Part shown: in pieces, positions 4,523 to 28,679 of the stretch
Layout of the letters: each line of letters starts with the position of its first letter
Position numbering within the stretch: position 1 is the stretch's first letter
Assembly: GCA_963718615.1 (NCBI GenBank)
Contig: OY970368.1
Location: 736,001-800,000 of the forward strand
Origin: an uncultured cyanobacterium
GTDB taxonomy: Bacteria; Cyanobacteriota; Cyanobacteriia; PCC-9006; JAAUQQ01
Length of the DNA: 64,000 nucleotides
Reading direction: 5' to 3'
Translations under genes and position numbers: made by a program
Notes under the pieces: generated by a model
Told to the model about the DNA's origin: nothing
What the model saw: the letters and a program-made list of their open reading frames with translations, nothing else
Databases searched by the model: none

Positions 4523-4735
4523 TTCAATGGCGTGCGGGGCATGGTGTAACTTCCATGTCCTGCTTTATGCGGCAGCAGGTTGCGATCGCATCGCAACCTG
4601 CCCCAAATCACGCAACACCTGCAACACCTGATACAAGTCATGACTTTTGCCGAACATCTGACCTGAGGCTTGACGGGCAGTCCCCTCTAGACGGACGCTA
4701 CTGCTACAGCATTGTGCCTTGGCAGGCTTTCGTTT

Positions 4736-6508: not shown

Positions 6509-6765
6509 GGACCTAATTGTCGAATCATTAGCCCAAATTTCGGACATTCTCAGATTTCTCAATCCCGCGCAAACTGCCGTAACAATTGACGGTTTTGTTT
6601 GACTTTTTAAGTTTCTCTGTTACCGTTTGATAAAGTAAATGTGAGTTAGCGCTTGTAGTCGTCGTGGCTTTAGGACACTACAGTTTCGCAACGCTACTGG
6701 GTGAGCAGGGGCATCTACCATTCATTCATCGACTGTGCTCTCTCAGGGATTCAATTGTATTCATC

Positions 6766-8127: not shown

Positions 8128-8136
8128 TTTACGGGG

Positions 8137-8487
8137 TCACGACAGAAGTAATGGCTCGATCTTTGCCTGTACTTCCTCAATGACACTTACTGGAACAGAC
8201 TCAACAAACTGAACACCACGGGCTTTCCAATCCAGACACTTGATTTGATCGGCAAGAATCACGCCTTGAATCTGCAACTCAAGCGGTAGAGGGACTTCAA
8301 AGGGATATCCTTTTTGCTGTTTAGTGATGGGCATAAACAGGGCTAGAGAACTTTTGGCGTTGTAACTCCGAGGTGAAATCACAAAAGCAGGTCGATGCCC
8401 TCTTTGTTCGTGACCTTTGGTTGGATCAAAGTTCAGGTAGACAATGTCTCCCCGATCTGGGATATAGCGATCGGTTGGTGCTACCAA
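8137..8487 (-). CDS. mazF: MazF/PemK endoribonuclease toxin
   Basis: YIPDRGDIVYLNFDPTKGHEQRGHRPA.V.SP..YN and KGYPFEV motifs. Confidence 0.95.
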   Translation of the reverse strand: MVAPTDRYIPDRGDIVYLNFDPTKGHEQRGHRPAFVISPRSYNAKSSLALFMPITKQQKGYPFEVPLPLELQIQGVILADQIKCLDWKARGVQFVESVPVSVIEEVQAKIEPLLLS

Positions 8488-14625: not shown

Positions 14626-17016
14626 TTACTGAATTACTCTAAAAACTGTTCGGAATACTTTAAGACTAAATATGCTTGGCAAAATTAAGCCAAGAAGACT
14701 TGGAACTATTGGAAGGAAGCCATTCCAGAAGATGAGTGTCCCCCAGGAAACAGTACAGAGTAAACAAAATAAAGCTACTCGTAAAAGAAGGCGCAACTTT
14801 GTTGCCGGTAGACCTAGGGCTAAAATAACACCATTGCAACTCCAAAAAAGAATCCAGAGATTGTCTGCTAACATTGGCCAGAACCAGAGCAACGGACGAT
14901 GCCCGACAGCAGCATCGATAATTTGACTGGTTACATGGGCTTGTAGCACAACCCCTGGAAGATCGTACCGGAAAGGCGTTCTATGGTAATCTCTATAGCT
15001 AGCTGCTGTGGTACCAATGAGCACAATCCGGTTTTTAATCGATTGTGCTGCAATTTCGCCATCGAGGACCTGTGAGAGTGAGACTGTCTCAAAGCTATTG
15101 ACCGGAGATGAACCTGGAATTTTCCGATACCGAAGCAAAATCTGTAATCCTCTAACATCAGCATTCAAGTAAATGCCTGGGCGAGTTTTGAGAGATGTTA
15201 GGGTAGCTTCTCCCAACTGCCAAGAATTACCTGTTGGAAACTGAAGCTGTATATCTTTTTCGCTTAAGTATCTTAGTGCGAGTTGTAAATTAAGAGAATA
15301 GGGAGGGACGCATTGACCAACTTCTGGCTGCATGGCGATCAGAGCACGCCGAACGACTCTATCTTGGTCGCTCATCGTATCGCTAAATCCGACAGATTTT
15401 AGGGGAAAGTTTTGGGGGGGAATGACTTCCGGCTTTGATGCAGCTATATCTCTAACTCGACAGGTTGTGATGAGAGGTGAGTTTGTGTTAGCCCATTTTG
15501 AAATATCATTAGGATTTGATAGATGAGGTTTCACTTCCTTAAGTAGCAAAGATTCATTCTCTCCTTGCTCAAAGGATCGATCGCGATAAATATCTAGGCC
15601 AATTACGGCTGCTTCTGCCTGATTCAATATCGTGAGTAATTGATTGAGAGCAGTAGGCGAAAGAGAATCAATCCTATCCTTCTGAGTAGGATGATAAAGG
15701 TCGTCTTCAGTAACTTCTACGATCAAGATACTGGGGTCGTATTCATCATTTGCAGGGCTCAATCGCACTATTACGTCATAGCTCCAGAGTTCAAGCTGTT
15801 GTAAAGCTCCGCTAAAGCGTAATCCGAGAACAGCGGCGGTTATCCCAATGCTTAGGGCTGCAATATAAAATACTTGGTGATAAGTTGGTAATCTTCGGAG
15901 AAAATCTCTCGATTGCAACGGAATCTCGGCGTTGTCTGACTGTAGATCGTGCCAAGTTGGGGGAGAGAAAGCGGGATTTTGGCAGATAATCGGAAGCCAA
16001 GTTGCACAAGGGAAATCATTTTCTAAGCTTTCTAGGCGATCGCGTGCCTGTCGCACTGCTGTATAAAGTGTTTTACCCCCAGCATAATCATGTAAAAAAT
16101 ACTGTAGGAACTTCTGAGCAACAATATCTGGTACCAGCTCCCGCATAAGAATGAGCTGAGGAATATTGAGTTCCTCTAGTTCCCAGGCTAATCCTAAGCC
16201 ATCACAGGAATTGAAAATAGCGAGCTGTAGCCCTCGACTAATTGCTTGTTTGAGAGATTTTCTAAGTTGTCCTATGGAAAGACTATCAGTTTCATTTAGC
16301 TGTATATACCCTATTGCATTGGATGTTTGACTGTGACCTGCAAAAAAGAGAATATCCCATGACTGGTGCCACAGCTTATCTGAAAATTCCTGGCGAGAAG
16401 GTTTGCGTAAAATTTCAACGTTGGCATTAGACAGTGCTCGTAGATCTATCTCATCTATCTCTGTATTAATACCCTGATTGTCACCAAAGATAGCTAAAAT
16501 ATTTACCTTTGGTGTTACTGGAGACTTAAGGCTTACGAATTTTGAATAGTCATTTTTGCAAAAACCCAGCTCTAATGTCGGGTATTGCTCCAGCTCCTCC
16601 CAGAGATGCCAAGGTAGTCGCCACAACTGTGGGTCATTGGCCTGAATGAGGATTCGACATTCCTGATCTGAAGCGAGTTCTCGATACAGCTCTCGTCGAA
16701 CTGGGTTAAAGCCGGGGTCAGCAAGCCACGTATCAATATCAGCCTTAAGACTGGCTGAGAGCTGTCTACATTCTTGGCGAAGAGAAGCCGCAGAGCTATC
16801 AATTCTCGCTGCTTTTGTTTTGATAGCCCGAACCTGCTTTCCGAGGGCTCGATAACTTTTACTCCATTCACAATAATGAGTTGCTAATTGTGGATAGAAA
16901 GGTAGGGATCCTGTCGATTGAAGATAGGGGGAACCCTGTTCTTCTCTGGCTTGGATTATGACTTTAAAGCCAGACTCTAAAGAACCATCAAAACTAAGTA
17001 TAATGAGCTTAGGCAT
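14626..17016 (-). CDS. Membrane CHAT (caspase-like) - CHASE2 sensor protein
   Basis: ILFFAGHS and AIFNSCDG His/Cys dyad; WLPIICQNP; TM helix; CHASE2 (AAVIGLDIYRD, VLIGTTA, PGVVLQAH..SQII); three C-terminal TM helices. Confidence 0.9.
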   Translation of the reverse strand: MPKLIILSFDGSLESGFKVIIQAREEQGSPYLQSTGSLPFYPQLATHYCEWSKSYRALGKQVRAIKTKAARIDSSAASLRQECRQLSASLKADIDTWLADPGFNPVRRELYRELASDQECRILIQANDPQLWRLPWHLWEELEQYPTLELGFCKNDYSKFVSLKSPVTPKVNILAIFGDNQGINTEIDEIDLRALSNANVEILRKPSRQEFSDKLWHQSWDILFFAGHSQTSNAIGYIQLNETDSLSIGQLRKSLKQAISRGLQLAIFNSCDGLGLAWELEELNIPQLILMRELVPDIVAQKFLQYFLHDYAGGKTLYTAVRQARDRLESLENDFPCATWLPIICQNPAFSPPTWHDLQSDNAEIPLQSRDFLRRLPTYHQVFYIAALSIGITAAVLGLRFSGALQQLELWSYDVIVRLSPANDEYDPSILIVEVTEDDLYHPTQKDRIDSLSPTALNQLLTILNQAEAAVIGLDIYRDRSFEQGENESLLLKEVKPHLSNPNDISKWANTNSPLITTCRVRDIAASKPEVIPPQNFPLKSVGFSDTMSDQDRVVRRALIAMQPEVGQCVPPYSLNLQLALRYLSEKDIQLQFPTGNSWQLGEATLTSLKTRPGIYLNADVRGLQILLRYRKIPGSSPVNSFETVSLSQVLDGEIAAQSIKNRIVLIGTTAASYRDYHRTPFRYDLPGVVLQAHVTSQIIDAAVGHRPLLWFWPMLADNLWILFWSCNGVILALGLPATKLRLLLRVALFCLLCTVSWGTLIFWNGFLPIVPSLLGLILPSIFSLKVFRTVFRVIQ

Positions 17017-17044: not shown

Positions 17045-18148
17045 CTAAAGAACGATCTTTTCTTCAAAAGTAAGACCATTCAAGCTGAGGTGCAGAATCA
17101 CAGCATCACCTTTCGTCCCTGAGAATTCCAATTGAAGATGACGATTATGCTGTTGGGCACAGGCGGCGAGCAGTTCAGAACGATTCGTATCTAGCAAGGC
17201 TAGTTTTAGGTTCTGGGGCAAGTACTCTCGACGAGGGCCTGGAATTGCATCAATAGAGATTTCAAGTGGTTCCTCAATGCCCTCAGCAGCACGAATTACC
17301 AATGCTACTGTCTGGTCAATATCCTCGTCGAGGTTTGGTGCCATTGTACCTCCATGTAAATTAGGATATAACGAAATAAGTTTATATCCAGAAACACAGT
17401 TAGATGGAGTGTGATGAAACTTAGATTGGAGCGAGTGGCCTCCAAAAAAGTCTTCCATTTTTTGTTGAAGCTCGATATTTTCTAGAGTTCGATAGGCGTA
17501 TGTAAGGGTTGACGGGTTGGAAGAAGTGGGATGTATGACTGCGTCGAGAGAAGACCAGCCAGAGGCAAAGAAGTCAGACCACCATTGTCTCAGCTCGACA
17601 AATGGTGATTTGGCAGTCGCAAGAAACTCAGGAAACTCATCTATACCTCGGAAGTTTTCAATAGAAAACAATTCAGAGTTCCGAGCTCCTGTCGTCTCTG
17701 GATTAAGGCAATTCAGAAAGCCGAGTAATATAGCTTGGTGTTGATCTAAATCGATTTCTACAGCAAAATATGCGATCCGGTTTTCCCAAGACTCCGCTGG
17801 CACTCGAATATGATGACTTCCCGGAAGAACTGGACAGCATTCAACGATCCCTAGATCAGGTAGGCGAATATCTGCAATGTCTAAGAGAATTCGCCGAAAC
17901 GGTTCCTGAAACTCGGTTGCTTGAGTATCAGATTCTATTCCTAAACATTGGAAATAGTGGTTGACAGCAAATCTCGCTAGGGCATTGTGATAGATCTGTT
18001 GCTGTCTAGGCATTGGACAGTTTTGAGCAAGTCGCTTCGCTTCTTGTTCAGCTTTGGCTGTGAGGACGATCGGAAAACTTGGTGTTGGTAAGGATTCAGG
18101 GCTGTACAAGAGCGATGAGTTCATAGTATATGGGGTGATAAGCTGCAT
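17045..18148 (-). CDS. DUF1822-family protein (candidate anti-sigma / protease substrate)
   Basis: QIYHNALA.FAV..Y...LGI, VECCPV, VPAE.WENRIAYFAV, VELRQWW..F.SGW, LP.NLKL.LLD and QLEFSG..GD C-terminal beta domain. Confidence 0.85.
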   Translation of the reverse strand: MQLITPYTMNSSLLYSPESLPTPSFPIVLTAKAEQEAKRLAQNCPMPRQQQIYHNALARFAVNHYFQCLGIESDTQATEFQEPFRRILLDIADIRLPDLGIVECCPVLPGSHHIRVPAESWENRIAYFAVEIDLDQHQAILLGFLNCLNPETTGARNSELFSIENFRGIDEFPEFLATAKSPFVELRQWWSDFFASGWSSLDAVIHPTSSNPSTLTYAYRTLENIELQQKMEDFFGGHSLQSKFHHTPSNCVSGYKLISLYPNLHGGTMAPNLDEDIDQTVALVIRAAEGIEEPLEISIDAIPGPRREYLPQNLKLALLDTNRSELLAACAQQHNRHLQLEFSGTKGDAVILHLSLNGLTFEEKIVL

Positions 18149-18205
18149 TGTGGTGATGTGACAAAGGGCGGTGAAGATACCAATCGTTAGCTATTTGGAT
18201 GGTTT

Positions 18206-19396
18206 CTATTCTGGGTTTCGTACTGAATTCAGTTCGGGATTCCTATCTGAGAACGTTTGTGGCCACAGTACCATCATACTCCTTTCATAAAAGCTTCTAA
18301 GCTTCGTGGGGTCTACCTTTAGGGCATCACTAGGAATCTGCCAGAGATGTCCGGCATCTAAAAGGATTTTTGTTAACTCAGAAAATGTGATGCTTGGATA
18401 GTCTGGCATGACAATTTTGTACCGCTCATTACGAGTGACATCACGATAGCTAGGAAATCGCTTAACTCGGCTCCGGTGATCACTTTCCAGTTTCGCTTCA
18501 TCAATCTTAAATTTCTGCGCAATGTTTTCCCAGGACTCACCCTCAAACCGAGAAAACCGAATGGCATGAAGGGTTGATTTAGACTGCCCTTCAACGACTG
18601 GTGTCAAAAGATTATCAAGCCAGTTGCTTAAAAAGTTTCTGGGCGTCGTTAGTCTGTTAAAGCCGTATTGGTCAGCAATGTCTTGCCATGTTTTATTTTT
18701 TATTCGAGCTAGAACAATGTCTAGGAAGGTAATGTGTGGCTTATCTCGATTGGGAATTCGAAAAATATAGTCTTCTTTTAACCAGTCTAAAAGGTTACTT
18801 GTTGTAAAATCCGATGAATGACTAGGAACACGATCGAAATCAAAGTCTTGAACTGGTTTCCCGAATCTTTCTTGTCTTTTCAGATCAGTAGCCTGAGGGA
18901 TATGAGTTCGGTCAAAGCGAAAGTTAATCCACTTAATGAATTCACCTCGCTCAGCATCAAATTTATGGATGTTTTTACAAATCCAAAGCTGAAGAATGTT
19001 CTGAGCTTCGCGATAGGCTTCGTCTGAGGCAAAGTCGGGCCGTTTTTTGAGCCGATTGCTGAGGAATAGAGCTCGAAAGAGAATGTCAATCGCTGTTTGA
19101 AACTCCGGAGTTCCGAGTGCGTAACTTTGGACATGGAGAGCGATCGCCTTCATCTGTCGCTCTCCCAGTACGGCTTGCCAGGTCTTGGCAAGAAGCAAAG
19201 ATGAAATTTCGCTAAACCTTTGCTCGGAAAGCGGCCCTTGCTGTATCGTTTCTAGTAGAAGCACAGAAAGAGACTGACTTGCCAGTCTACTAATCTCTTG
19301 GTAGATATAAGGAGGTTTTCCCCGCTGGAGTAAGCGATAGAAAGCATTATGGCGGAGAAGCGCCTCAGCCATCTCCATGGAATCGAAATCAGTCAT
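18206..19396 (-). CDS. Divergent sigma-70/ECF-like factor of cyanobacterial CHAT/DUF1822 loci
   Basis: Sigma-2-like YREAQ....WICKNIHKFDAERGEFIKWINF and C-terminal W..IA..(F/Y) HTH modules; first gene of the operon with DUF1822; ATG 19396 preferred over GTG 19423. Confidence 0.7.
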   Translation of the reverse strand: MTDFDSMEMAEALLRHNAFYRLLQRGKPPYIYQEISRLASQSLSVLLLETIQQGPLSEQRFSEISSLLLAKTWQAVLGERQMKAIALHVQSYALGTPEFQTAIDILFRALFLSNRLKKRPDFASDEAYREAQNILQLWICKNIHKFDAERGEFIKWINFRFDRTHIPQATDLKRQERFGKPVQDFDFDRVPSHSSDFTTSNLLDWLKEDYIFRIPNRDKPHITFLDIVLARIKNKTWQDIADQYGFNRLTTPRNFLSNWLDNLLTPVVEGQSKSTLHAIRFSRFEGESWENIAQKFKIDEAKLESDHRSRVKRFPSYRDVTRNERYKIVMPDYPSITFSELTKILLDAGHLWQIPSDALKVDPTKLRSFYERSMMVLWPQTFSDRNPELNSVRNPE

Positions 19397-19416
19397 GCTA
19401 TGCCTATTGCATGGAA

Positions 19417-19460
19417 CCTTCACAAACTTAATCCTCGTCTACATGGGTAATTTACACGTT
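19417..19460 (-). promoter_or_regulatory. Bipartite promoter-like motif, copy 1 (sigma-like gene)
   Basis: Minus strand AACGTGTAAA-N17-GATTAA-GTTT-GTGAAGG. Confidence 0.7.
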
Positions 19461-19653
19461 CTGCTTTAGAATTTTCAAATTATTTTGCGGATGAAGAAAA
19501 TATTTCCTGTAATCTAATGTCATAGTATGTATTATTTCTACAGTAAACTCGTTTGCATTATCTCCCAATTTGGCGTCAGATCTACTAGATAGCCCGTATA
19601 AATAAATTCGTGATCGTTGCTAAAATTACTGAGAATATTGCCAAAGGTATCAT

Positions 19654-20475
19654 ATGAGAAAATTATTGCCCTTGATGATTTTGTTCTCTGGGATTGTGGT
19701 TGCTTCCACGTCACTAGCCCTAGGACAGCCCGAATTGATCCAATCGGCTGAGACGAAAGCTACGAAGAAAAAAACGCCCTATGTCCCCCCGGACCCCCCT
19801 CCAGGTTTGAATGCTCCCGGAAATCGTAGCGAGGCTGGGAGTCGGGGTAGTGATGGACAGATTTTGCCGCTGGCTCAGCAATTGGTTGCCATTGTTCCTG
19901 AGTTTGAGCGGGTAGTAGAGTCTTTGCCTATTCCACAGGTATGGGTCCTCACGGCTTCTCGCTATCCGACTTTTTGGTTTTATGTTCCCCTTGCTGAAGA
20001 TCCTACGCTTAGGTTTGTAATTGAACGTAGGAACCCATCGGAACGCGGTCGGAAATACATAACCGTTTACCAGCAGGAAATCCCTATTTCTCGGGAAGGA
20101 TTCCTCTCTATTACGCCTGCTGATTCATTTGAAGGGTTAAAAGAAGGGGAGCTCTATCGTTGGTCTTTGAGTTCGATTAAGCCTAGTTTAACGAAAAGTT
20201 ATCGTTCGTTAAAGCCGATTAAGGGTTGGGTTGAGCTGCGATCGTTACCGAAAAATATGAGTGAACAGCTCAAGCTTGCTTCTCCATCAGAAGCTATAGA
20301 GATTTATGGGCGGAATGGAATTTGGCTGGACAGTTTTGATGCTGTAGCCCAGCACTACCGTACTGCTCCGGACCGTTACATCATCTTGTGGCAGGATTTT
20401 TTAGAAGGGGTTGGACTTGAGGCGTTATCAAAGAAACCAGTATCAAGTGGTGGCTCAGTCGTTCGCCACGATTAA
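19654..20475 (+). CDS. DUF928-family secreted protein
   Basis: Signal peptide; PPDPP...APGNRSEAGSRG; T.S.YPTFWFYVP; YRWSL; GIWLD; W..FLE.VGL. Confidence 0.88.
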   Translation: MRKLLPLMILFSGIVVASTSLALGQPELIQSAETKATKKKTPYVPPDPPPGLNAPGNRSEAGSRGSDGQILPLAQQLVAIVPEFERVVESLPIPQVWVLTASRYPTFWFYVPLAEDPTLRFVIERRNPSERGRKYITVYQQEIPISREGFLSITPADSFEGLKEGELYRWSLSSIKPSLTKSYRSLKPIKGWVELRSLPKNMSEQLKLASPSEAIEIYGRNGIWLDSFDAVAQHYRTAPDRYIILWQDFLEGVGLEALSKKPVSSGGSVVRHD

Positions 20476-20538
20476 GTCATCATTCTGATCTTTTACTCAG
20501 AACCGTCACAAGGTAATCTTTCGATCAATTTTTCAAGC

Positions 20539-20581
20539 AACCTGTAAAAACTCAGTATCCTCACTGATTAACTAAGTGCAG
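20539..20581 (+). promoter_or_regulatory. Bipartite promoter-like motif, copy 2 (FG-GAP gene)
   Basis: AACCTGTAAA-N17-GATTAA-CTAA-GTGCAG, ~40 nt before ATG 20621. Confidence 0.7.
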
Positions 20582-20620
20582 CTTCCCGAAGGGAGTTAAA
20601 TCTTAGCCAGGGTAATACAA

Positions 20621-22864
20621 ATGAGTTTTGGACCAACGTTTGATCTTGCTAGCCTTAACGGCTTCAATGGATTTTTTATTGATGGAATCAGCACAGGCGA
20701 CGGATTGGGTCGTTCAGTTAGCACAGCAGGGGACTTTAACGGAGATGGTATTGATGACCTGCTGATTGGAGCACCTGGAGCGCTGGGTGCTAGACCTAGC
20801 GGTAGTTTGGCGGCAGGTGAGAGTTATATTATTTTTGGTGCGAGAGGAATTGGTAACAGTGGAAGCTTTAACCTGAGTAACTTAAATGGCAGTAACGGTT
20901 TTGCGCTAAAGGGCATTGACTCTCAAGACGATTCTGGTTACTCGGTGAGTGGGATTGGTGATATTAATAATGATGGTTTCGATGACATTATTATTGGTGC
21001 CTATAATGCGGATGCACCTGAGGCTTTTTCGGGGGAAAGTTATGTCGTTTTTGGGCGTCAGAGTGTTGGCTTGGGCGCTAGCTTAAACCTCAGCAGCTTA
21101 AACGGAAGCAATGGTTTTATTGTCAGGGGCCTTAATAACAGCGATTTTTCTGGTGTTTCTGTGAGCGGGGCTGGAGATGTCAATGGCGATGGCTTTGACG
21201 ATTTCATTGTTGGAGCTCCCGGAGCTAATCCGAATGGCTTTGACTCGGGACAAAGCTATGTAATATTTGGTGGTAGAGGCATTGGCATCACAGGCAGTTT
21301 TGATCTCAGGAGTTTGAATGGTAGCAATGGTTTTGCCCTAAACGGCAGTCGCTTCAGTAATTTCTCAGATCGCGCTGGAGCCTCGGTCAGCAGCGCTGGA
21401 GATTTCAATGGAGATGGATTTGATGATTTAATCATCGGGGCTCCTGATGGTGAGGTCAACGGCGTCAAGACAGGCAAAAGCTACATTGTCTTTGGCCGTA
21501 GCAGCTTTACGAGTGGCACGATTGAGTTAGCGAGTTTGAATGGCAACAATGGTTTTGTGCTAAGAGGTGTCGATCGCCTCGATGACACCGGCTCAGAAGT
21601 CAGCAGCGCCGGAGATATCAATAATGATGGCTTTGATGATGTTTTGATCCATTCGGAAAATAATGGAGGAGAAACCTATGTTGTCTTTGGAGGAAGCAAC
21701 GTTGGTCTTAGCGGTAGTTTTAACTTAGCTGACCTCAACGGCAGTAACGGATTTGTCATTCGTGGGAATGGTGGAGGGGGGTATGGTCGAGATGTGAGCG
21801 AGGTTGGCGATGTAAACAATGATGGGATTGATGACATCATTATTGGCTCATCTTTTTTCGGCAGCTATGTGATTTTTGGGGGTAGTGGGATTGGCAGCAG
21901 TGGCAGTTTTAACCTCAGTGATCTCAATAGCCAGAATGGTTTTGCACTCAGCGTTGAGTCTCGTTATCCAGGCCGCGCCGTTAGCGGTCTGGGTGATATC
22001 AATGGTGATGGGATTGATGATCTGATCACTGCAAATCGTTCCACAGGAGCGAATGCAGGGCGAAGTTATGTTGTGTTTGGCCGCGATACGACGGCACGGG
22101 TTCCATTTGCTAAGTTCTTCAGTTTTGACCAGTGGGTCAAGTTTCAGCGGTTTGATGATGGTGTCAACATTCCATTGACGCCTGCGGAAGTGGGAGGGGT
22201 TTCGCTTCAGTCTTTGTTTGATGAGGCGTTTTATCTCGATCGCAACAGAGATGTGAAAGCGGTAGTGGAAAACGGTGCTCTAACCTCTGGTTATGAACAT
22301 TTCATCAGACATGGACGATTTGAAGGGCGTGACCCTAGCGTACTCTACAGCGAAGAAGCCTATTTGCGCCAATATGCAGATGTGGTGGCGGCGGTGAGAG
22401 CTGGAGCCTTTAGCAGCGGTTTTGAGCACTATATCAACTATGGTCATATCGAAAATCGAGTTGCCAGCACTGCGTTTAATCCAATTGATTATCTAACTCA
22501 AAATCCAGACGTCGCTGGAGCTGTTACCCAGGGCTTCCTGAGTAGTGGTTTTGAGCATTTTGTCGAAAGTGGTGCCAATGAGGGGCGCGTTTCGGGGGTG
22601 ATGTTGTTTGAGGAGGCGTTTTATTTGGCCCAAAATCCGGATGTGGCGCAGGTTGTAACTGGGGGGAGCTTCAGCTCTGGGCTTGAGCACTTTGCACGCT
22701 ATGGTCAACGGGAAGGACGAATTTCCAGCAGCACCTATCGTGAAGGTGGCTACCTGGGTGCAAATTCTGATGTGGCGGCAGCGGTGAGTGGCGGCGGTTT
22801 TTCAAGTGGCTTTGAACATTTTGTGGAATTTGGGCGAATTGAGGGGCGATCGCTAGGCCTATAG
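20621..22864 (+). CDS. FG-GAP/integrin-alpha beta-propeller protein with five C-terminal ~44-aa repeats
   Basis: Seven GD(F/I/V)N(G/N)DG(F/I)DD...YV.FG blades; repeats of E..YL..N.DV..AV..G..SSGFEHF...G..EGR. Confidence 0.88.
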   Translation: MSFGPTFDLASLNGFNGFFIDGISTGDGLGRSVSTAGDFNGDGIDDLLIGAPGALGARPSGSLAAGESYIIFGARGIGNSGSFNLSNLNGSNGFALKGIDSQDDSGYSVSGIGDINNDGFDDIIIGAYNADAPEAFSGESYVVFGRQSVGLGASLNLSSLNGSNGFIVRGLNNSDFSGVSVSGAGDVNGDGFDDFIVGAPGANPNGFDSGQSYVIFGGRGIGITGSFDLRSLNGSNGFALNGSRFSNFSDRAGASVSSAGDFNGDGFDDLIIGAPDGEVNGVKTGKSYIVFGRSSFTSGTIELASLNGNNGFVLRGVDRLDDTGSEVSSAGDINNDGFDDVLIHSENNGGETYVVFGGSNVGLSGSFNLADLNGSNGFVIRGNGGGGYGRDVSEVGDVNNDGIDDIIIGSSFFGSYVIFGGSGIGSSGSFNLSDLNSQNGFALSVESRYPGRAVSGLGDINGDGIDDLITANRSTGANAGRSYVVFGRDTTARVPFAKFFSFDQWVKFQRFDDGVNIPLTPAEVGGVSLQSLFDEAFYLDRNRDVKAVVENGALTSGYEHFIRHGRFEGRDPSVLYSEEAYLRQYADVVAAVRAGAFSSGFEHYINYGHIENRVASTAFNPIDYLTQNPDVAGAVTQGFLSSGFEHFVESGANEGRVSGVMLFEEAFYLAQNPDVAQVVTGGSFSSGLEHFARYGQREGRISSSTYREGGYLGANSDVAAAVSGGGFSSGFEHFVEFGRIEGRSLGL

Positions 22865-22995
22865 TGCCCTCAATCATCTAGCACCCCATTGGAATGCGCA
22901 GGGAATGCGCAAGAATACTCAGAGCGTGCGGGCTTGGCCGAAAGCCTGCATGCTTATGTCTCGTGTTCAGGCCATCCCAAAAATATTTTTGCACC

Positions 22996-23039
22996 AACGT
23001 GTAAAAGCTCAGTGCTCCCACGGATTAATAGAGTGAAGG
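22996..23039 (+). promoter_or_regulatory. Bipartite promoter-like motif, copy 3 (CsgG-family gene)
   Basis: AACGTGTAAA-N17-GATTAA-TAGA-GTGAAGG, ~57 nt before ATG 23097. Confidence 0.7.
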
Positions 23040-23096
23040 CCCGCACAGGGAATACAGCAGCCTTTACTGATACATTTCTACGAGGTTTACGATTCT

Positions 23097-23861
23097 ATGA
23101 CCCCGACAGCATTGAAAGTGTTAAGTCATCACGCGACAGCCGCGTTATTCGCTGTGAGTGTAAGCTTGGTCGGAGCAACCCAAACCCTAGCACAGACTAA
23201 ACCCACCATTTCTGTGCCCGAATTTAAGAATGAAAGCACTTGGTGGTGGTGGCGGGGAGGCACATCCAGAGAACTAGCGGATGCCTTGAGCAATGAGTTG
23301 AGTTCAACTGGCAGCTTTACGGTTGTTGAACGTCAAAAGCTAGATACGGTTCGAGATGAGCAAGTCCTGAATAATGAGGGTCTTGTACGGCAAGGAACTG
23401 GGGCTAAAACGGGGCAGCTAACGGGCGCACAATATATTGTTATGGGTAAGGTGACGTCCTATGAGGAAGGTGTCAACGGGGAAGAAAGCAAGAACAGAAC
23501 CTGTGTTCTCGGCATTTGTCGTGGTGGTGCCAAGCAAAAGCAGCAAGCTTATGTGGCGATCGATCTGCGTGTCGTCAACTCAACAACCGGAGAAGTAGCC
23601 TATGCGCGAACAGTTGAAGGACTCGCGACTTCAGAATCTGAGTCCAAATCAGGCGGAATTACTATTGGCCCTATCACTACGGGCGGAAGCTCTAGCAAAA
23701 CCACGAAAGCCCCGGTTGGAAAAGCGCTTCGTTCTGCGCTGGTCGAAGCCACTAATTACCTTGACTGTGTGATGGTGAAAAAAGGAAGCTGTATTGCAGA
23801 ATTTGAGAGAAAAGAAGCAGTTCGCCGTGAGAATACTGGTGGTGTTCTAGATCTGCAATGA
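23097..23861 (+). CDS. CsgG/HfaB-family envelope protein
   Basis: Signal peptide; FTVVERQKL...EQ.L, GQLTGAQYIV.G.VTSYEE and VAIDLRVV.STTGEV. Confidence 0.88.
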   Translation: MTPTALKVLSHHATAALFAVSVSLVGATQTLAQTKPTISVPEFKNESTWWWWRGGTSRELADALSNELSSTGSFTVVERQKLDTVRDEQVLNNEGLVRQGTGAKTGQLTGAQYIVMGKVTSYEEGVNGEESKNRTCVLGICRGGAKQKQQAYVAIDLRVVNSTTGEVAYARTVEGLATSESESKSGGITIGPITTGGSSSKTTKAPVGKALRSALVEATNYLDCVMVKKGSCIAEFERKEAVRRENTGGVLDLQ

Positions 23862-23991
23862 CTCTTAGCCTTTGCTTTCTTAGCTTAGTCCTTTAGCTTT
23901 TCACATGTCATGAGAATTGTCAATTGTATGGCAATGTTTTCCATCAGGAGTTTTTATGCTCTTAAAAGCTTTTAGATGAGCAGTATACATC

Positions 23992-24016
23992 TAGGGCGAA
24001 CGCGATTCGCCCCTAC
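23992..24016. repeat. REP-like cyanobacterial hairpin
   Basis: TAGGGCGAA-CGCGA-TTCGCCCCTAC. Confidence 0.55.
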
Positions 24017-24329
24017 GAAGATTATCAGTTTTGAAGGATGTTTGAGAGTACGCCAAAGCCAAAGATTCGACACTAAAACAGGGCAATCTTTTGCTTAACG
24101 TTGAGCAAGCGTAAGAGATTTTTAGCTCATTCAGCTACAGTCTAAGCCATTCTCGAACATCCTATTAGGAATAAACCGCATTATTAATTTAGTGGTTTCC
24201 TAAGAAATACGAAGTAATGTAGTTGTTGTCATAGCAGCAAAATCCTCTGCCTTTTTTATTACTAGACTCATCTCTCATTTAGCATGAGCTGATGCTATCA
24301 CGTGCGTTTTTTATCCTGGAGTTTTCATC

Positions 24330-24935
24330 GTGAAGCTTTTTTCTTGCAGCATGAAGAGTTCGCTAACAAGCTTGACAATTGCCTTCTTTGGTATTGGATA
24401 CTTTTCAAGTATAGCCATTGCTCAACAGCCTCAAATCGCTCGAACCGAATCTAACTTAATTCCACTGGAACAGGCCGATTATATTCTTGAACTTCCAAAG
24501 GGAACCTATCGTATTGATGTGGTTTCGTCCAGAGTTTCTAGCCCATTCATCGCTATTTTTGAGGAAGACACTGACAGACAAGTTAAGTCGTCTACCGCAG
24601 ACGCTCACACATTTATATCTGTCAATTTATCTGGGGGTAAATACCGGGTCAGAGTAGGTTTTATAGAGTGTCTTTCGGCAAACCATCGATGCTCTGCTGA
24701 CATCTATTTCAGAAATTCTTCTGGATCTTATTTTGTTCCAAAACTAGACATAGAGCCTCGGAGTTTGAAGCTTGCCCGACAAGTATATCAAGAAAGAAAG
24801 TCTGAACTGAGTGAAGCGCGTCAAGGATGTCACAGTCATTCAAGTATTTTCAATAATACATGTGGCCGAGTACAGCAGTTAGAAGATGCTATACGAAATA
24901 GTGGAATGTCTCCATCTTTGTTTAGAGGATTTTAG
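24330..24935 (+). CDS. Hypothetical secreted protein
   Basis: GGAG RBS, signal peptide ending AIA-QQ, beta-rich domain, two Cys pairs. Confidence 0.7.
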   Translation: MKLFSCSMKSSLTSLTIAFFGIGYFSSIAIAQQPQIARTESNLIPLEQADYILELPKGTYRIDVVSSRVSSPFIAIFEEDTDRQVKSSTADAHTFISVNLSGGKYRVRVGFIECLSANHRCSADIYFRNSSGSYFVPKLDIEPRSLKLARQVYQERKSELSEARQGCHSHSSIFNNTCGRVQQLEDAIRNSGMSPSLFRGF

Positions 24936-25055
24936 TAGCTAATGTGGAAAACAAAAAATCAGTAGATTTTCACTCTAATACAAGAATCGAATTTCAGAAA
25001 TCATAAAGTTCTCACTTCTACACCTCACTCACTACAATCGCATCAAGCTAGAAAG

Positions 25056-25583
25056 ATGATGAAAATGCACAAGTTTGGTCTCTATGCTTCTACAGCAATT
25101 TTATTGAGTGGTGTGATTGCTAGCTCGGCGATCGCTCAAACAAAATTAGCACTGACCCTCAAACCCTACGACGAAAAACACAAATATGTTGACTTCTCTT
25201 CAGACTCCGGCACCTGTGAAGGTACAGTCATGCAAGCTGGCATGGCTTGCGTTCTTAATATTAAAAAAAACGACTCGAAATTTAGTCGCGTGGCAGTGCT
25301 AAGTCTAGTGAATGTTGTTCAGACACTAAGATCTCGAACCGATATTAATGTTCGTGAATTTAAACCAAATAAAGCAAACATTGCTTTTTTGATAACGGTT
25401 AACATGTACGTTGACTATACAAAAAGTACAGTGCCGCTGGCACAGGCGGGCTTGACGAATCAAGGAGAATTAATCGTGATCCCAGAATATGGTGAATACG
25501 GGCTTGAAGAATCTAAAAATGTTCTAGAACGAGAGTCGAAGGCGATCGCCATTCTAATCAAAGCCCTAAAAGAAACAAAATAA
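25056..25583 (+). CDS. Hypothetical secreted protein
   Basis: Signal peptide ending AIA-QT; 175-aa ORF. Confidence 0.7.
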   Translation: MMKMHKFGLYASTAILLSGVIASSAIAQTKLALTLKPYDEKHKYVDFSSDSGTCEGTVMQAGMACVLNIKKNDSKFSRVAVLSLVNVVQTLRSRTDINVREFKPNKANIAFLITVNMYVDYTKSTVPLAQAGLTNQGELIVIPEYGEYGLEESKNVLERESKAIAILIKALKETK

Positions 25584-25646
25584 TCAGACATTGCTACTTC
25601 AAGGAACGCTCACCATTGGAACGAACCGTATTCGTCCGGCTTTCGC

Positions 25647-28600
25647 TCAGAGCCAATTACCGACTAAAACAAATGCGGCCCAAAAATAGGGCTCCGATGT
25701 ATCCAGTTCATCCGAGTCCTTCACATAAAGCTGAGCCCGACGCAACGCCTCAGCACGGCTCACAGAGCTATCTGCAAGTTCTTGGTAAAACCGCTGCATC
25801 AGAAATGCTGTAGACCGGTCATCAACAAACCAAAGGCTGCCCAGCGTACTCCTTGCGCCCGATCGCACTGCAATCCCCGCCAAACCCAGTCCTGCCAGTT
25901 CATCCCCCTTGGCGGTTTCGCAGGCACTCAGTACCAAAAGTTCGATAGGCTGGTCAGAGCCCAGCCCCTTGCCCTGGAGAAGAGCACTCAGCTCATTCGC
26001 ATTTAGCCGATCATCCGCCGTGACAACATAGGTGTCTTCTAACGTCGAGCCAAAAACACCATGGGTTGCCAAATGAACCACCGGGAATGAGAGTTCATTG
26101 ACCTTAGTTTCGAGATTTGTCTGCGTAAAGTCTCCGTCTAATAAGACCTGGCTACCTGGGGCTTGAGCCTGAATTGATTCAACTTCAGGTTTGGCGAAGC
26201 CTAGTGCTTTAAAAGGTCCATTATCTACCGTTAGCCCACCTAGAATTACCTTAACATTACGACGGGATAGCGATCGCGAATCCAAAAGCTGTAGACTTGG
26301 GGAGGTAGCGATCGCATACTTCTCAATCAAGTACTTCTCTTCCCGTTGGTCATACAAAACCGCCATGGGAATATTCTGAAGCGAACCACTCGACAGAAAC
26401 AAGAGTGTTTCTACACCGCTTGCTTCTAGATCCGCTTCAAAGGGTCGAATGAGAATATCGTAGAGTTGTCCGCCAATGAGTACTGTCTCGTCTCTCGCTT
26501 CTTGGGGTTGCTTCAGGCCAACTTGCAAAATTTCTTCTCCATCGCTTCTAGAGCAGTTGGTACTAGACAATTCGTTAGTATCATCAAACTCAGCTTGCTG
26601 ACAGGCCGTGCCCCGAGAAGAGACAAGACTTCTCAGTGAGAACAAATCTTGATCAAACTCGACTAAATTAACCGAACTACTTTGATGCTTCCAGATAGTA
26701 TTGTTTGATAAATCATTGACTTTATTAGAGACATTACTTTTTGTTCTAGAAACTTTTGTATTCGGCAAGCCAACGACAACTTCGACTCGATCTTTGATGA
26801 TAATTGGGTAAATAATCGCGGCTTTTGGATCAATGTCTTCAATCTTAATCTCACTAGCCAGTAGACAGTCAGATCGAAAGAAATTGGTCAATTCTGCGAC
26901 CTGAAGCGAATCTGCAATCTGAATAGCCCGATCCAAATAGGAATTAAAGTTTTCTTGAACTAAATTTATCGTCTGGCCTGTCAACTGTTTTTGAGTCTGT
27001 TTCTTTTTCGAATGCTCTAAAATAGAATATTGACTTGGTTCTAATGATACTTTTTGATGGTTTGCTTCAATCAACAGCTCAATTAAACCTTGATAGATAG
27101 GTTTAATCTGATTTTGAAAAGAGAGCTGGTTCTGACGATTGATTGTAATTAGATCACCCTTCAAAAGATTGATTTGAGTCACCGAGGACTCGTAGGCGGC
27201 GATCGCCTCCATCAAAAGCTGATCCCGTTTCTCAAGCTGATCGATTGGTAAAAGCGATCGTTTGAACCTGAGCAACCTCCCCTGCTGCCAAAGCCAGGGG
27301 TAAGTCATAAACCCAAGATTGAGGCCCTCCGCTCGTTCTAATGCCTGCTTGGTGAAAGCCTCTGCCTGGGCTAATTGCTGCTGTTTTTCGATAGGTGCGA
27401 GCGCCTCCAGAAATCGATATTCATACAGTCTTCCCCAGTACCCTAGAGCATAGGCTTCAAACTGACCGTCCTGGAGTGATTTCGATTCTGCAAGTAGCTG
27501 CTGAATTAGCCTTTCTACTGTTTTTTCTGAAATGATATCGTATTGATTTTTTCCATCTCTGGGCTTCATTAGATTTAATGCATCAGCGATCAAGGTGACT
27601 TGTAATCGAAACTTGGCGCGGTTGGCTGGAATAGTTTCTAGTAATGCGATCGCTTGAGTGATTTCTGAGGCGATCGCTTGACCCGAACGGAGTTGGCTCG
27701 CAGTATCAGGTTTAAGCTGTTGCTGAGTTCGCTGTTGAATCATCTGCTGAATCAGATTGATTTGGGCTTGTAGTTCAATCTCAGGGGGAATAGACAGAGC
27801 CATCGCCTGCCGCAGAGAGGCTTGCGCATCTTCTGAGTTTGCTGCCATGCTGCTGATGCTGATCAGGGAGAGTGCAGCTTCGATGGGGAAATTTTCCTGT
27901 TGCGCGATCGTCAAACTTTGTTCTAAGCAATCCTGGGCACTCTGACATAATCCCGTTTCATTCCGGCCAGAGAACTGATACAGTAAGTTACCTAACTGCC
28001 TCAGGACTAAAGCTTTGTTCTGAGGATCAATCAATGTATTAGTCTGAGAAACTAGCATCTGACCAGCTGAATTGAGACTTTCCATCGCCTGTGGATACAA
28101 ACCACTCAGACGCAAAAGTTCAGCTTGATTAAGCCGATTGCGCAGGAAAGCACTAGCATTTTTGGGCAGTTTTAGATTGAGCCGCTGATAGGACTTTTCA
28201 GCGGTACGGAGTTTCTGTAAGGCAGTTTGGTATTGCCCCTGCGCGCGATAGAGCTGCCCTTCGGTACTGAAGCTCTGGGCCAAGACTCGTTGTTGTGCCG
28301 TGCTAGGAGATAATTTTTCAAGCTGGGTTTGGGCTTGAGTGAGAATTTGTTCAGCGGCTCCATAATCCCCAAGCTGGAGATGGGCAAGGGCGATGTTGTT
28401 GAGGGCGATCGCCTGGGCCAGCCTATCACCCTTTTGCTCAGCCCACTGCTCAGCTTTTTCCCAGTGTATCTTGGCTTCAAAAAATCGACCCGATTGGTAG
28501 GCTGCACGTCCAGCCTCCAAAAAATTCTGATTAGAAGTTTCTACAACTGATGGAGAAGACTGATTAAGTTCCAGGAAAAATCCCACAGGTGTCTGTTGGG

Positions 28601-28679
28601 CTAAGCTCGGAGCGCTGATGCATAGCCACAGGGTTAGACTCATCCAAGCGATGAATCTCCAGATGCGAGAATCGGTCAT
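25647..28679 (-). CDS. Secreted TPR - CHAT (caspase/HetF-like) protease
   Basis: Signal peptide, TPR-like helices, VVHLATHGVF and LVLSACETA dyad, SLWFVDD, PYFWAAFVLVGNWL; ATG overlaps the TpsA stop (ATGA). Confidence 0.93.
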   Translation of the reverse strand: MTDSRIWRFIAWMSLTLWLCISAPSLAQQTPVGFFLELNQSSPSVVETSNQNFLEAGRAAYQSGRFFEAKIHWEKAEQWAEQKGDRLAQAIALNNIALAHLQLGDYGAAEQILTQAQTQLEKLSPSTAQQRVLAQSFSTEGQLYRAQGQYQTALQKLRTAEKSYQRLNLKLPKNASAFLRNRLNQAELLRLSGLYPQAMESLNSAGQMLVSQTNTLIDPQNKALVLRQLGNLLYQFSGRNETGLCQSAQDCLEQSLTIAQQENFPIEAALSLISISSMAANSEDAQASLRQAMALSIPPEIELQAQINLIQQMIQQRTQQQLKPDTASQLRSGQAIASEITQAIALLETIPANRAKFRLQVTLIADALNLMKPRDGKNQYDIISEKTVERLIQQLLAESKSLQDGQFEAYALGYWGRLYEYRFLEALAPIEKQQQLAQAEAFTKQALERAEGLNLGFMTYPWLWQQGRLLRFKRSLLPIDQLEKRDQLLMEAIAAYESSVTQINLLKGDLITINRQNQLSFQNQIKPIYQGLIELLIEANHQKVSLEPSQYSILEHSKKKQTQKQLTGQTINLVQENFNSYLDRAIQIADSLQVAELTNFFRSDCLLASEIKIEDIDPKAAIIYPIIIKDRVEVVVGLPNTKVSRTKSNVSNKVNDLSNNTIWKHQSSSVNLVEFDQDLFSLRSLVSSRGTACQQAEFDDTNELSSTNCSRSDGEEILQVGLKQPQEARDETVLIGGQLYDILIRPFEADLEASGVETLLFLSSGSLQNIPMAVLYDQREEKYLIEKYAIATSPSLQLLDSRSLSRRNVKVILGGLTVDNGPFKALGFAKPEVESIQAQAPGSQVLLDGDFTQTNLETKVNELSFPVVHLATHGVFGSTLEDTYVVTADDRLNANELSALLQGKGLGSDQPIELLVLSACETAKGDELAGLGLAGIAVRSGARSTLGSLWFVDDRSTAFLMQRFYQELADSSVSRAEALRRAQLYVKDSDELDTSEPYFWAAFVLVGNWL

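Follow-up and report, generated by a model that had tools for sequence, protein, structure and literature searches.

Autoregulated modules made of a sigma factor with extracytoplasmic function (ECF) and its anti-sigma factor are represented by RpoE-RseA in Escherichia coli and by SigW-RsiW and SigX in Bacillus subtilis. A trio of genes for a sigma factor, a DUF1822 protein, and a caspase-like protein was catalogued in 2021 by Kaur et al. (PMC8195603), who proposed a route from sensing through peptidase activation to a transcriptional response via the coupled sigma factor; this work is a computational catalogue, and the accessible portion of it gives no promoter motif or target genes and names DUF1822 just as a TPR protein. 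In the experimentally studied type III-E CRISPR system, according to the accessible text of Strecker et al. (Science 2022, PMC10028731), Csx29, a TPR-CHAT protease, cleaves Csx30, an inhibitor bound to the ECF-like CASP-sigma, and CASP-sigma has three binding motifs inside its own locus in D. ishimotonii, leading to local positive autoregulation. Here we describe a locus holding a sigma-like gene, a DUF1822 gene, and a gene for a CHAT-CHASE2 protein in a stretch of 64,000 nt from an uncultured cyanobacterium (hereafter the window; G000:C1:736001-800000), which belongs to a single-contig genome of 6.10 Mb with a G+C content of 52%. Three copies of a DNA motif stand in this locus before the sigma-like gene, an FG-GAP gene, and a CsgG-family gene, respectively. 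These copies are probably the cognate promoters of the sigma-like protein, which would thereby govern three transcription units as its private regulon. Strong comparative evidence speaks for this reading, in which the sigma-like protein would recognise the motif directly.

Three copies of a tripartite motif

The pattern TGTAAA-N17-GATTAA was found three times in the window by direct reading and pattern search, at 19428-19456 on the minus strand and at 20543-20571 and 23000-23028 on the plus strand, all three falling inside 3.6 kb; over 100 shuffles of the window the mean was 0.01, and no shuffle got to three. Each copy is part of a 43-nt form, AACsTGTAAA-N17-GATTAA-N4-GTGmAG (P1, P2, and P3, before the sigma-like, FG-GAP, and CsgG-family genes, respectively; Table 1). 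The original prediction, made on this DNA before the present analysis, had named these three sites with their strands correctly, and its outer ends, 19417 and 23039, overshoot by one base each. The three copies all lie between genes in sense orientation, their distances from the start codons fall within the 20-60 nt that had been claimed, and a T-rich tract lies upstream of each, in agreement with the A/T tract described earlier. The recount of the FG-GAP and CsgG copies returned the same 29 of 39 identical positions, with 11 of the 17 spacer positions alike and the upstream flank also in common. The spacer of the sigma copy agrees with those of the FG-GAP and CsgG copies at 4/17 and 5/17 positions, respectively, which is chance level and bears out the claim that this copy retains the boxes without the spacer. 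The likeness between the FG-GAP and CsgG spacers probably stems from the promoter cassette having been duplicated recently, rather than from selection. By these comparisons, the bipartite boxes and the fixed 17-nt spacing are kept and the spacer itself is unconstrained. The motif is tripartite and longer than first described, being composed of a T-tract, CAACGTGTAAAA, N16, GATTAA, N4, and GTGAAGG.

A genome-wide scan, which had been proposed together with the original prediction, was made over 6,095,823 bp on both strands and gave four exact matches to TGTAAA-N17-GATTAA, three of them at this locus, where ~0.54 would be expected given how often each hexamer occurs (2036 x 3254 / 12.19 million). 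On this count, the reading of the motif as a dispersed repeat was rejected. The fourth match, at genome position 2680352, is without the flanking AAC and GTG boxes, ranks seventh with the boxes-only matrix described below, and fits the ~0.5 matches expected by chance. Spacers of 14, 15, 16, 18, 19, and 20 nt had 2, 1, 1, 0, 0, and 4 matches in the genome, respectively. When the genome was scanned with a boxes-only matrix, built solely from four sites of two related genomes (L001 and L002, see below) and covering the three boxes, P3, P2, and P1 were found at ranks 1, 2, and 3 of 12,191,546 positions, with scores of 38.7, 31.5, and 29.9, against 21.4 at rank 4. With a full-width matrix made from all 17 outside sites, the window sites were at ranks 11, 13, and 125. 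Matrices into which the window sites themselves had entered are circular and were left out of the evidence. The genome scan for a further high-scoring site found none near the scores of the window sites, and the predicted regulon in this genome consists of exactly three units.

Conservation of the motif in related genomes

GCGATCGC sites were seen in the window, and all relatives found were cyanobacterial. Two close relatives were present among 185,579 species genomes, i.e., an Acaryochloridaceae metagenome-assembled genome (L001) and Leptolyngbya sp. Prado105 (L002). Both have the gene order of the window, with the sigma-like, DUF1822, and CHAT-CHASE2 genes in succession and the DUF928 and TPR-CHAT genes divergent from them, and the position of the DUF928 gene is also the same. 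The motif stands before the sigma-like gene in both (L001 3683-3711; L002 9941-9969), 31-34 nt upstream, and a second copy is located after the TPR-CHAT gene, facing a 203-aa exported-looking open reading frame (ORF) in L002 and the contig end in L001. Two ORFs beyond this 203-aa motif-driven ORF, at the edge of the cluster, L002 has a Tn5-type transposase gene (3388-4707). In L001, CHAT-CHASE2 appears as two ORFs (6062-6724, 220 aa; 6800-8371, 523 aa), for which a frameshift, an error of assembly, or a gene that is really split could account.

More distantly, four Nostocales genomes encode relatives of 373-377 aa with 22-25% identity, with the DUF1822 gene following them and a pentapeptide-CHAT protein encoded nearby. 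These genomes contain a variant of the motif, TGTATAAA-N17-GATTAA-N4-TAGAAA, in two to four copies per genome, one of which lies 30-31 nt before the sigma-like gene and the rest before small ORFs that are mutually non-homologous. The DUF1822 gene is syntenic in L001, L002, L004, L005, and L037, and is adjoined by the sigma-like gene in the last three. A copy of the motif is located 30-34 nt before the start codon of the sigma-like gene in the window and in all these five loci, and every listed copy is sense-oriented. The matches to TGTATAAA-N17-GATTAA found at the sigma-like locus were four of four in G266 (within 2.3 kb), two of two in G401 and in G403, and one of two in G402, with 0, 0, 0, and 2 matches, respectively, for the reversed-pattern control. 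Likewise, both matches to GTGTAAA-N17-GATTA were at the locus in each of the window genome (G000), G404, and G405, the control giving 0, 0, and 1. Exact matches to the clade variants number 14 over the six cyanobacterial genomes other than that of the window, 13 of them lying at the orthologous cluster, and GATTAA is placed at the fixed 17 nt in 20 of 20 collected sites.

The earlier claim of a local regulon is thus supported, and the search upstream of orthologues that had been put forward as a check comes out in its favour, the motif being confined to this locus in the genome and standing before the orthologous sigma-like gene in L001 and L002 and, in the variant form, in the four Nostocales genomes. 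The claim of selection on -35/-10-like boxes holds for the boxes and the 17-nt spacing, which are kept across genomes, and not for their number, since the motif is tripartite rather than made of just two boxes. The ORFs behind the motif other than the sigma-like genes differ between genomes and are mutually non-homologous; 10 of these 11 ORFs have a signal-peptide-like N terminus, as called by simple hydropathy and by eye, with the FG-GAP protein as the exception.

Shorter homologues of the sigma-like protein, described in the following section, were included in an unbiased count of 6-mers within the 150 nt before the gene in 26 short or intermediate forms. TTGTAA was present at 16 of the 26 loci (1.4 expected), GTAAAA at 15 (1.65 expected), TGTAAA at 13 (1.4 expected), and ATAGAG at nine (0.67 expected). 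Judged by eye, the upstream architecture of the short forms consists of YRTAAA, N17-18, GAnnnn, N4, and TAGAGG. At P1 in the window, a sigma-70-like sequence, TTGAAA-18-TAAATT (19449-19478 on the minus strand; 9/12 to the consensus), overlaps box 1 of the motif. Many short-form sigma genes likewise have TTGTAA(C), ~23 nt upstream of their GTAAAA box, and a housekeeping promoter for basal expression may here be superimposed on the autoregulated one.

Structure and relatives of the sigma-like protein

The start codon of the sigma-like gene was set at the ATG at 19396, because all seven homologues (7/7) begin there with MT/MS..FD; the GTG at 19423, the likely pick of the ORF-caller, falls within the third box of the motif. 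The protein is laid out as an extension (residues 1-75), a sigma-2 domain (~75-175), a disordered linker (178-200), a sigma-4 domain (~212-266), and two additional helix-turn-helix (HTH) units (267-320 and 328-384). It passed none of the curated sigma models (Sigma70_r2, Sigma70_r4_2, and Sigma70_ECF of Pfam, and the sigma-70 models of NCBIfam), and its relatives among 5.8 billion proteins amount to just seven clusters, with 49-100% identity. An AlphaFold model was generated from its own seven-cluster alignment with a mean pLDDT of 80. The top rows of the Foldseek search with the full model were mostly sigma-A chains (E, 0.2-1). In a VIA-align comparison of the model with 48,161 chains, ranks 1-14 were all occupied by sigma factors, matching residues 74-175, and this part superposed best on the sigma-2 domain of SigC (Z, 9.6; root-mean-squared deviation, 2.4; 86 of 89 residues). 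Other sigma-2 domains matched in the same region are those of SigK (Z, 9.6), SigW (8.7), and CnrH (8.4), as well as BldN, sigma-E, and AlgU, the Z values of the ECF sigma-2 matches ranging from 8.0 to 9.6. By our own reading of the sequence, the sigma-2 domain contains an FD.ERG.F..W stretch, a type of pattern typical of region 2 of ECF sigma factors.

Of 401 cyanobacterial genomes sampled, 42 gave matches to a profile of the family, chiefly in ORFs 210-250 aa long, and in 1.84 billion representatives the profile matched 293 clusters (50% identity), by which measure the trio is widespread in cyanobacteria; only one of these clusters, the own clade of the window protein, reached E 1e-30 or better. 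Metagenome contigs scanned with the same profile yielded no relative. An alignment of 22 short forms (~215 aa) was matched by hhalign to window residues 79-264 (99.8%; E, 1.1e-28), with the sigma-2 part aligned at residues 79-175. Among these 22 short forms, 12 match Sigma70_r4_2 (best E, 2.2e-5), three match Sigma70_ECF, and three match Sigma70_r2 in Pfam, and the short-form profile matches the solved SigK (E, 2.2e-5). When compared with the sigma-4 region of the short forms, the three units of the window protein at residues 212-266, 267-320, and 328-384 gave hhalign values of 97.5, 96.9, and 95.0%, respectively (E, 7e-12 for the first), and reversed or column-shuffled controls gave 4.4% or less. 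The two extra sigma-4-like units are identified solely by hhalign, and the C-terminal half folded alone had a mean pLDDT of 59. No match from outside the clade in the library of 1.84 billion proteins extends past approximately position 291 of the profile, and the two extra units are therefore regarded as clade-specific, while the 75-residue N-terminal extension is common to many relatives of 290-417 aa.

With its 396 aa, its extension, and its two extra units, the protein departs from the two-domain ECF architecture (~200 aa, without regions 1.1 or 3). ECF sigma factors with regulatory extensions exist, and we consider the extension and the two extra units as a variant architecture, not as an exclusion from the ECF type. 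Judged from sequence comparison and structural modelling, the 396-aa protein is a very divergent member of the sigma family of ECF type with additions, and the original naming of the gene product as sigma-like is borne out by the sigma-2 superposition, the hhalign matches, and the Pfam matches of the short forms. In the Nostocales long forms (L004 9743-10876; L037 10588-11718), a hydrophobic transmembrane-like segment is found at residues ~219-254, between sigma-2 and sigma-4, with a 19-residue Kyte-Doolittle mean of 2.3-2.5; this segment hints at a membrane-tethered sigma-like factor.

Operon partners and model of the DUF1822 complex

The sigma-like, DUF1822, and CHAT-CHASE2 genes are closely spaced on the minus strand, with gaps of 58 and 28 nt in this order, and P1 is the predicted autoregulatory promoter of this operon. 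No hydrophobic segment was found in the DUF1822 protein when looked for. A model of the complex between the sigma-like protein and the DUF1822 protein had ipSAE values of 0.84, 0.76, and 0.76 (median, 0.76), and the best of three controls had 0.00. Among 157 solved complexes, 116 come up to the mark set for ipSAE, as do two of 215 mismatched pairs; these counts hold only roughly here, the runs having used alignments of our own. At least 75% of the contacts agree between the runs, and the pLDDT of the partner was 76-78. The modelled contacts are formed by residues 94-140 of sigma-2 and 228-264 of sigma-4 on one side, and by residues 20-89 and 118-177 of DUF1822 on the other. This contact pattern has the geometry of an anti-sigma clamp and supports a predicted binding of the sigma-like protein by DUF1822.

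In the CHAT-CHASE2 protein, the N-terminal protease domain, CHAT, takes up residues 98-340 and CHASE2 residues 393-730. One hydrophobic helix lies at 381-399, and the C terminus is formed by a hydrophobic block (720-792). His228 (in FFAGHS) and Cys271 (in FNSCDG) are invariant in the three aligned CHAT-CHASE2 proteins (3/3). These features suggest a cytoplasmic protease with an external sensor. Family scans and neighbour comparison found no other DNA-binding protein encoded in the conserved cluster.

Proposed mechanism and alternative explanations

We propose that the sigma-4 domain of the sigma-like protein would read GTGTAAA as the -35 element and its sigma-2 domain would read GATTAA, 17 nt downstream, as the -10 element, with the transcript starting in or just after the third box, GTGAAG. 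The three units transcribed in this manner would be the sigma-like/DUF1822/CHAT-CHASE2 operon, which would bring about positive feedback, the FG-GAP gene, and the CsgG-like gene. Upstream of this step, the cytoplasmic DUF1822 protein may clamp between sigma-2 and sigma-4 and hold the factor as an anti-sigma factor. Given a caspase-like domain in the same operon that appears to be active, the simplest route would be as follows. A signal sensed by the extracytoplasmic CHASE2 domain would activate the cytoplasmic caspase-like CHAT domain, and cleavage of DUF1822 or of the extension of the sigma-like protein by CHAT would free the factor, so that the three promoters could fire. A fixed 17-nt distance, an unconstrained spacer, and a copy before the own operon together form the classic signature of an autoregulated alternative sigma factor, and the T-rich upstream tract fits the same picture. 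Most likely, the motif identifies a few genes that form a private set and are turned on by a caspase-like membrane sensor. The full proposal, in which DUF1822 represents a novel, soluble class of anti-sigma factor, the sigma factor is released through cleavage by a CHASE2-gated caspase-like protease, and this factor, with three sigma-4 units in the window clade, reads a private tripartite promoter and switches on its own sensing module together with species-variable exported proteins, is put forward tentatively, as a possibility that we would not yet back at even odds. If it is true, the locus would represent a bacterial pathway that runs in full from a caspase-like protease to transcription and has a defined output on the DNA, and a family-wide promoter code (YRTAAA-N17-GAnnAA-N4-TAGAGG-like) would apply to a few hundred clusters of cyanobacterial sigma-like proteins.

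Several observations weigh against reading the motifs as promoters that the sigma-like protein recognises. Since the related genomes are kin to one another, their agreement and the counts derived from them overstate independence. The columns of the boxes-only matrix were picked after the window sites had been seen, which introduces a mild circularity, and a full-width matrix of the L001 and L002 sites placed the window sites at ranks 1, 2, and 67, the last being P1. A full-width matrix from 13 distant sites (Nostocales and Moorena) ranked them at 2224-2711 of 12.19 million; because of these ranks the Nostocales variant is not interchangeable with that of the window clade, and the motif variants are, by this comparison, clade-specific. 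A hand-written degenerate pattern for the short forms matched just six of 26 upstream regions. On the side of the protein, the Pfam scan of the 396 aa returned no family at E up to 0.01, the NCBIfam model TIGR02985 matched residues 249-300 with an E of 0.11 and 12.7 bits versus its cut-off of 126.4, and Foldseek with the full model against the PDB found no match at E 0.001 or better. The family profile matched no sigma factor among the sequences of solved structures at E up to 1, and the Z of 9.6 in the VIA-align superposition lies, by the tool's own note, within the range that helical bundles reach without relatedness. As to the promoter itself, well-studied ECF promoters have a CGT-type -10 element. 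GATTAA is unlike this element, and the third box, at a fixed 4 nt from the second (GTGAAG in the window; TAGAAA or TAGAGG in relatives), is atypical; the register of the -10 element and of the start site is therefore uncertain. Finally, the sigma-70-like TTGAAA-18-TAAATT overlaps box 1 of P1.

The position of the window protein below all curated sigma thresholds, its three sigma-4-like HTH units next to a motif with three boxes and a T-tract, and the dissimilarity of GATTAA and the third box to known ECF -10 elements could also be accommodated by a classical activator or repressor site, occupied by the sigma-like protein as a free multi-HTH DNA binder or by an unlinked regulator, with transcription proceeding via a housekeeping or group 2/3 sigma factor. 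We regard this as unlikely, because the Nostocales long forms, with a single sigma-4 unit, keep the same tripartite motif and the ~215-aa short forms carry related boxes, so that the boxes do not correspond one-to-one with HTH units. Moreover, the 17-nt gap between the two hexamers is the geometry of the sigma-70 family, the sigma-2 domain is kept including its FD.ERG.F..W stretch, and no consensus promoter of the sigma-70 type was found at P2 and P3 when looked for. A different assignment of the boxes, in which ordinary promoters of the sigma-70 type have TGTAAA(A) as their -10 element and GATTAA and GTGAAG belong to the 5' leader, where they might act as an operator or a leader element, would make use of the overlap at P1 and of the TTGTAA(C) that many short-form sigma genes have ~23 nt upstream of a GCGTAAAA box in a -35/-10-like arrangement. 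It appears improbable to us, since neither P2 nor P3 offers an acceptable -35 hexamer at a distance of 16-18 nt upstream of TAAAA and the fixed position of GATTAA at 17 nt in all 20 sites is left unexplained; furthermore, sigma-70-type promoter-like sites number 13 in 12 kb against 16.7 expected, which makes the overlap at P1 unremarkable.

The extensive identity between P2 and P3, including their spacers and upstream flanks, points to a recent cassette duplication, and the shared sequence might then be a functionless remnant of local copying or, alternatively, a transcribed RNA element such as a leader structure or a small RNA. We give this explanation very little credence. An Rfam search of 18000-25000 found no match at E up to 1, the folds are no more stable than those of shuffled sequences (z, -1.67, +0.06, and +0.85), and no structure is common to the three copies. 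P1 shares just the boxes with P2 and P3, and six other genomes keep the boxes and their spacing but not the spacer, which is the signature of protein-DNA contacts under selection and not of recent copying. Duplication accounts for the likeness between the P2 and P3 spacers but not for the conservation across genomes, for which we favour recognition of the three motifs as promoters by the sigma-like protein.

Neighbouring genes and a second module

The features of the locus are listed in Table 1. From hydropathy, the CsgG-family protein has a signal-peptide-like N terminus, and that of the FG-GAP protein is not signal-peptide-like. The DUF928 gene, the divergent neighbour of the sigma-like gene, has no copy of the motif upstream in the genome matrix scans. 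Between the DUF928 and TPR-CHAT genes of the window (20476-25646) lie the FG-GAP and CsgG genes together with the two exported-looking ORFs; in L001 (216-3448) and L002 (6735-9811), TPR-CHAT directly follows DUF928. The output cassette of the window resembles an insertion, whose promoter copies either came along with it or were acquired. On either side of the cluster are genes for a protein with a Peptidase_C39-like domain and a protein with a two-partner secretion (TPS) domain; the company of CHAT, DUF928, and haemagglutinin-like proteins is often seen in cyanobacteria.

Table 1. Positions of the motif copies and genes of the locus in the window.
Feature	Position	Strand	Description
P1	19418..19460	-	AACGTGTAAA-N17-GATTAA-N4-GTGAAG; 21 nt before the sigma-like ATG (19396)
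P2	20539..20581	+	AACCTGTAAA-N17-GATTAA-N4-GTGCAG; 39 nt before the FG-GAP gene
P3	22996..23038	+	AACGTGTAAA-N17-GATTAA-N4-GTGAAG; 58 nt before the CsgG-like gene
Sigma-like gene	18206..19396	-	396 aa; N-terminal extension, ECF-type sigma-2, linker, sigma-4, two extra sigma-4-like units
DUF1822 gene	17045..18148	-	367 aa; Pfam PF08852, E 1.1e-36; candidate anti-sigma factor
CHAT-CHASE2 gene	14626..17016	-	796 aa; caspase-like protease and CHASE2 sensor (Pfam CHAT, CHASE2)
FG-GAP gene	20621..22864	+	747 aa; Pfam FG-GAP, seven stretches, E 1.3e-48; predicted output gene 1
CsgG-family gene	23097..23861	+	254 aa; Pfam CsgG, E 3.8e-48; predicted output gene 2
DUF928 gene	19654..20475	+	273 aa; Pfam PF06051; signal-peptide-like N terminus; divergent neighbour of the sigma-like gene
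Two exported-looking ORFs	24330-24935, 25056-25583		between the CsgG gene and the TPR-CHAT gene
TPR-CHAT gene	25647-28718		convergent in the window
Flanking gene	11045-14002	+	985 aa; C-terminal Peptidase_C39-like domain
Flanking gene	28676-34471	-	1931 aa; TPS domain

A second module is present in the same genome (L038 10533-14719, equal to G000:C1:2586532-2590718), composed of a sigma-like ORF of 272 aa (E, 3.6e-9 with the family profile), a DUF1822 protein of 410 aa, and a CHAT protein of 685 aa with a periplasmic-binding-protein domain. Upstream of it (L038 10375-10470) are about nine tandem units of 11-12 nt resembling cAGTAAAat, followed by ATAAAA...CCGATAGTC, and no copy of the window motif was found at this module, so that a separate promoter variant seems to belong to each module.

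Comparison with known systems

'DUF1822' is named in two of ~8.4 million full texts. The ECF re-classification paper and the paper on cyanobacterial sigma architecture do not mention it, and the portion of the PMC7826278 supplement that could be consulted has no entry for DUF1822, CHASE2, or DUF928, though an ECF group covering the family may still exist there. Literature searches found no published promoter for the sigma-like/DUF1822 family, and, as far as these searches reach, the trio is known so far just from computational cataloguing. The defined motif makes the system directly testable, with a DNA target, a predicted start site, and named output genes, which are an FG-GAP protein and a CsgG-type secretion component here and small exported proteins in the relatives. 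Because there are just three sites in 6.1 Mb, the motif and the sigma-like factor would also constitute a clean orthogonal pair of sigma factor and promoter. The locus is of interest for the extreme divergence of the factor, its three sigma-4 units, the confinement of the motif to one locus, DUF1822 as a candidate anti-sigma factor, and the link to a caspase-like sensor.

The canonical autoregulated ECF modules are similar to this locus in having a bipartite promoter with a spacer of ~17 nt, a copy before the own operon, a co-transcribed inhibitor, and release by regulated proteolysis; the TGTAAA of the window motif resembles the -35 element of SigX, TGTAAC. They differ in the CGT-type -10 element, in place of which GATTAA and a third conserved box are found here. 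Whereas the canonical anti-sigma factor is a membrane protein with a known anti-sigma domain and is cleaved by site-1 and site-2 proteases, the partner here is a soluble DUF1822 protein and the protease is caspase-like. The sigma-like protein itself, unlike canonical ECF sigma factors, is below the family thresholds and has the 75-aa extension and the two extra sigma-4-like units.

In comparison with the EACC2-caspase/ECF sigma/DUF1822 neighbourhood of Kaur et al. (PMC8195603), as far as it is laid out in the accessible part of that paper, the same gene trio is found here. The caspase/CHAT protein of that neighbourhood, whose N-terminal region is constant and whose C-terminal sensor varies, has its counterpart in the CHAT and CHASE2 domains of the window CHAT-CHASE2 protein, in which hydrophobic helices flank CHASE2, and the adjacency of DUF1822 with a sigma-type gene is likewise found, in the same order in L001 and L002. 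Relative to what is accessible of that catalogue, the DNA motif, the predicted three-unit regulon, the modelled DUF1822 clamp, and the triple sigma-4 architecture of the clade are new.

The type III-E CRISPR system of Csx29, Csx30, and CASP-sigma (PMC10028731), in the features given in the accessible text, shares with this locus a CHAT-family protease, a sigma-binding inhibitor, for which DUF1822 is the candidate here, and motifs clustered in the own locus. Its trigger is the RNA-guided Cas7-11, whereas the trigger here would be the extracytoplasmic CHASE2 domain, and the window sigma-like protein is far more divergent than CASP-sigma and carries extra domains. Pfam scans of chosen long ORFs at 11045-34471 detected no Cas families, no search aimed at CRISPR arrays having been made. 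The motif singles out DUF1822 as likely to be the substrate or inhibitor in a switch gated by a protease, which would parallel Csx29-Csx30-sigma, and by this analogy the window locus would work like the Csx29-Csx30-CASP-sigma system without being a member of it.

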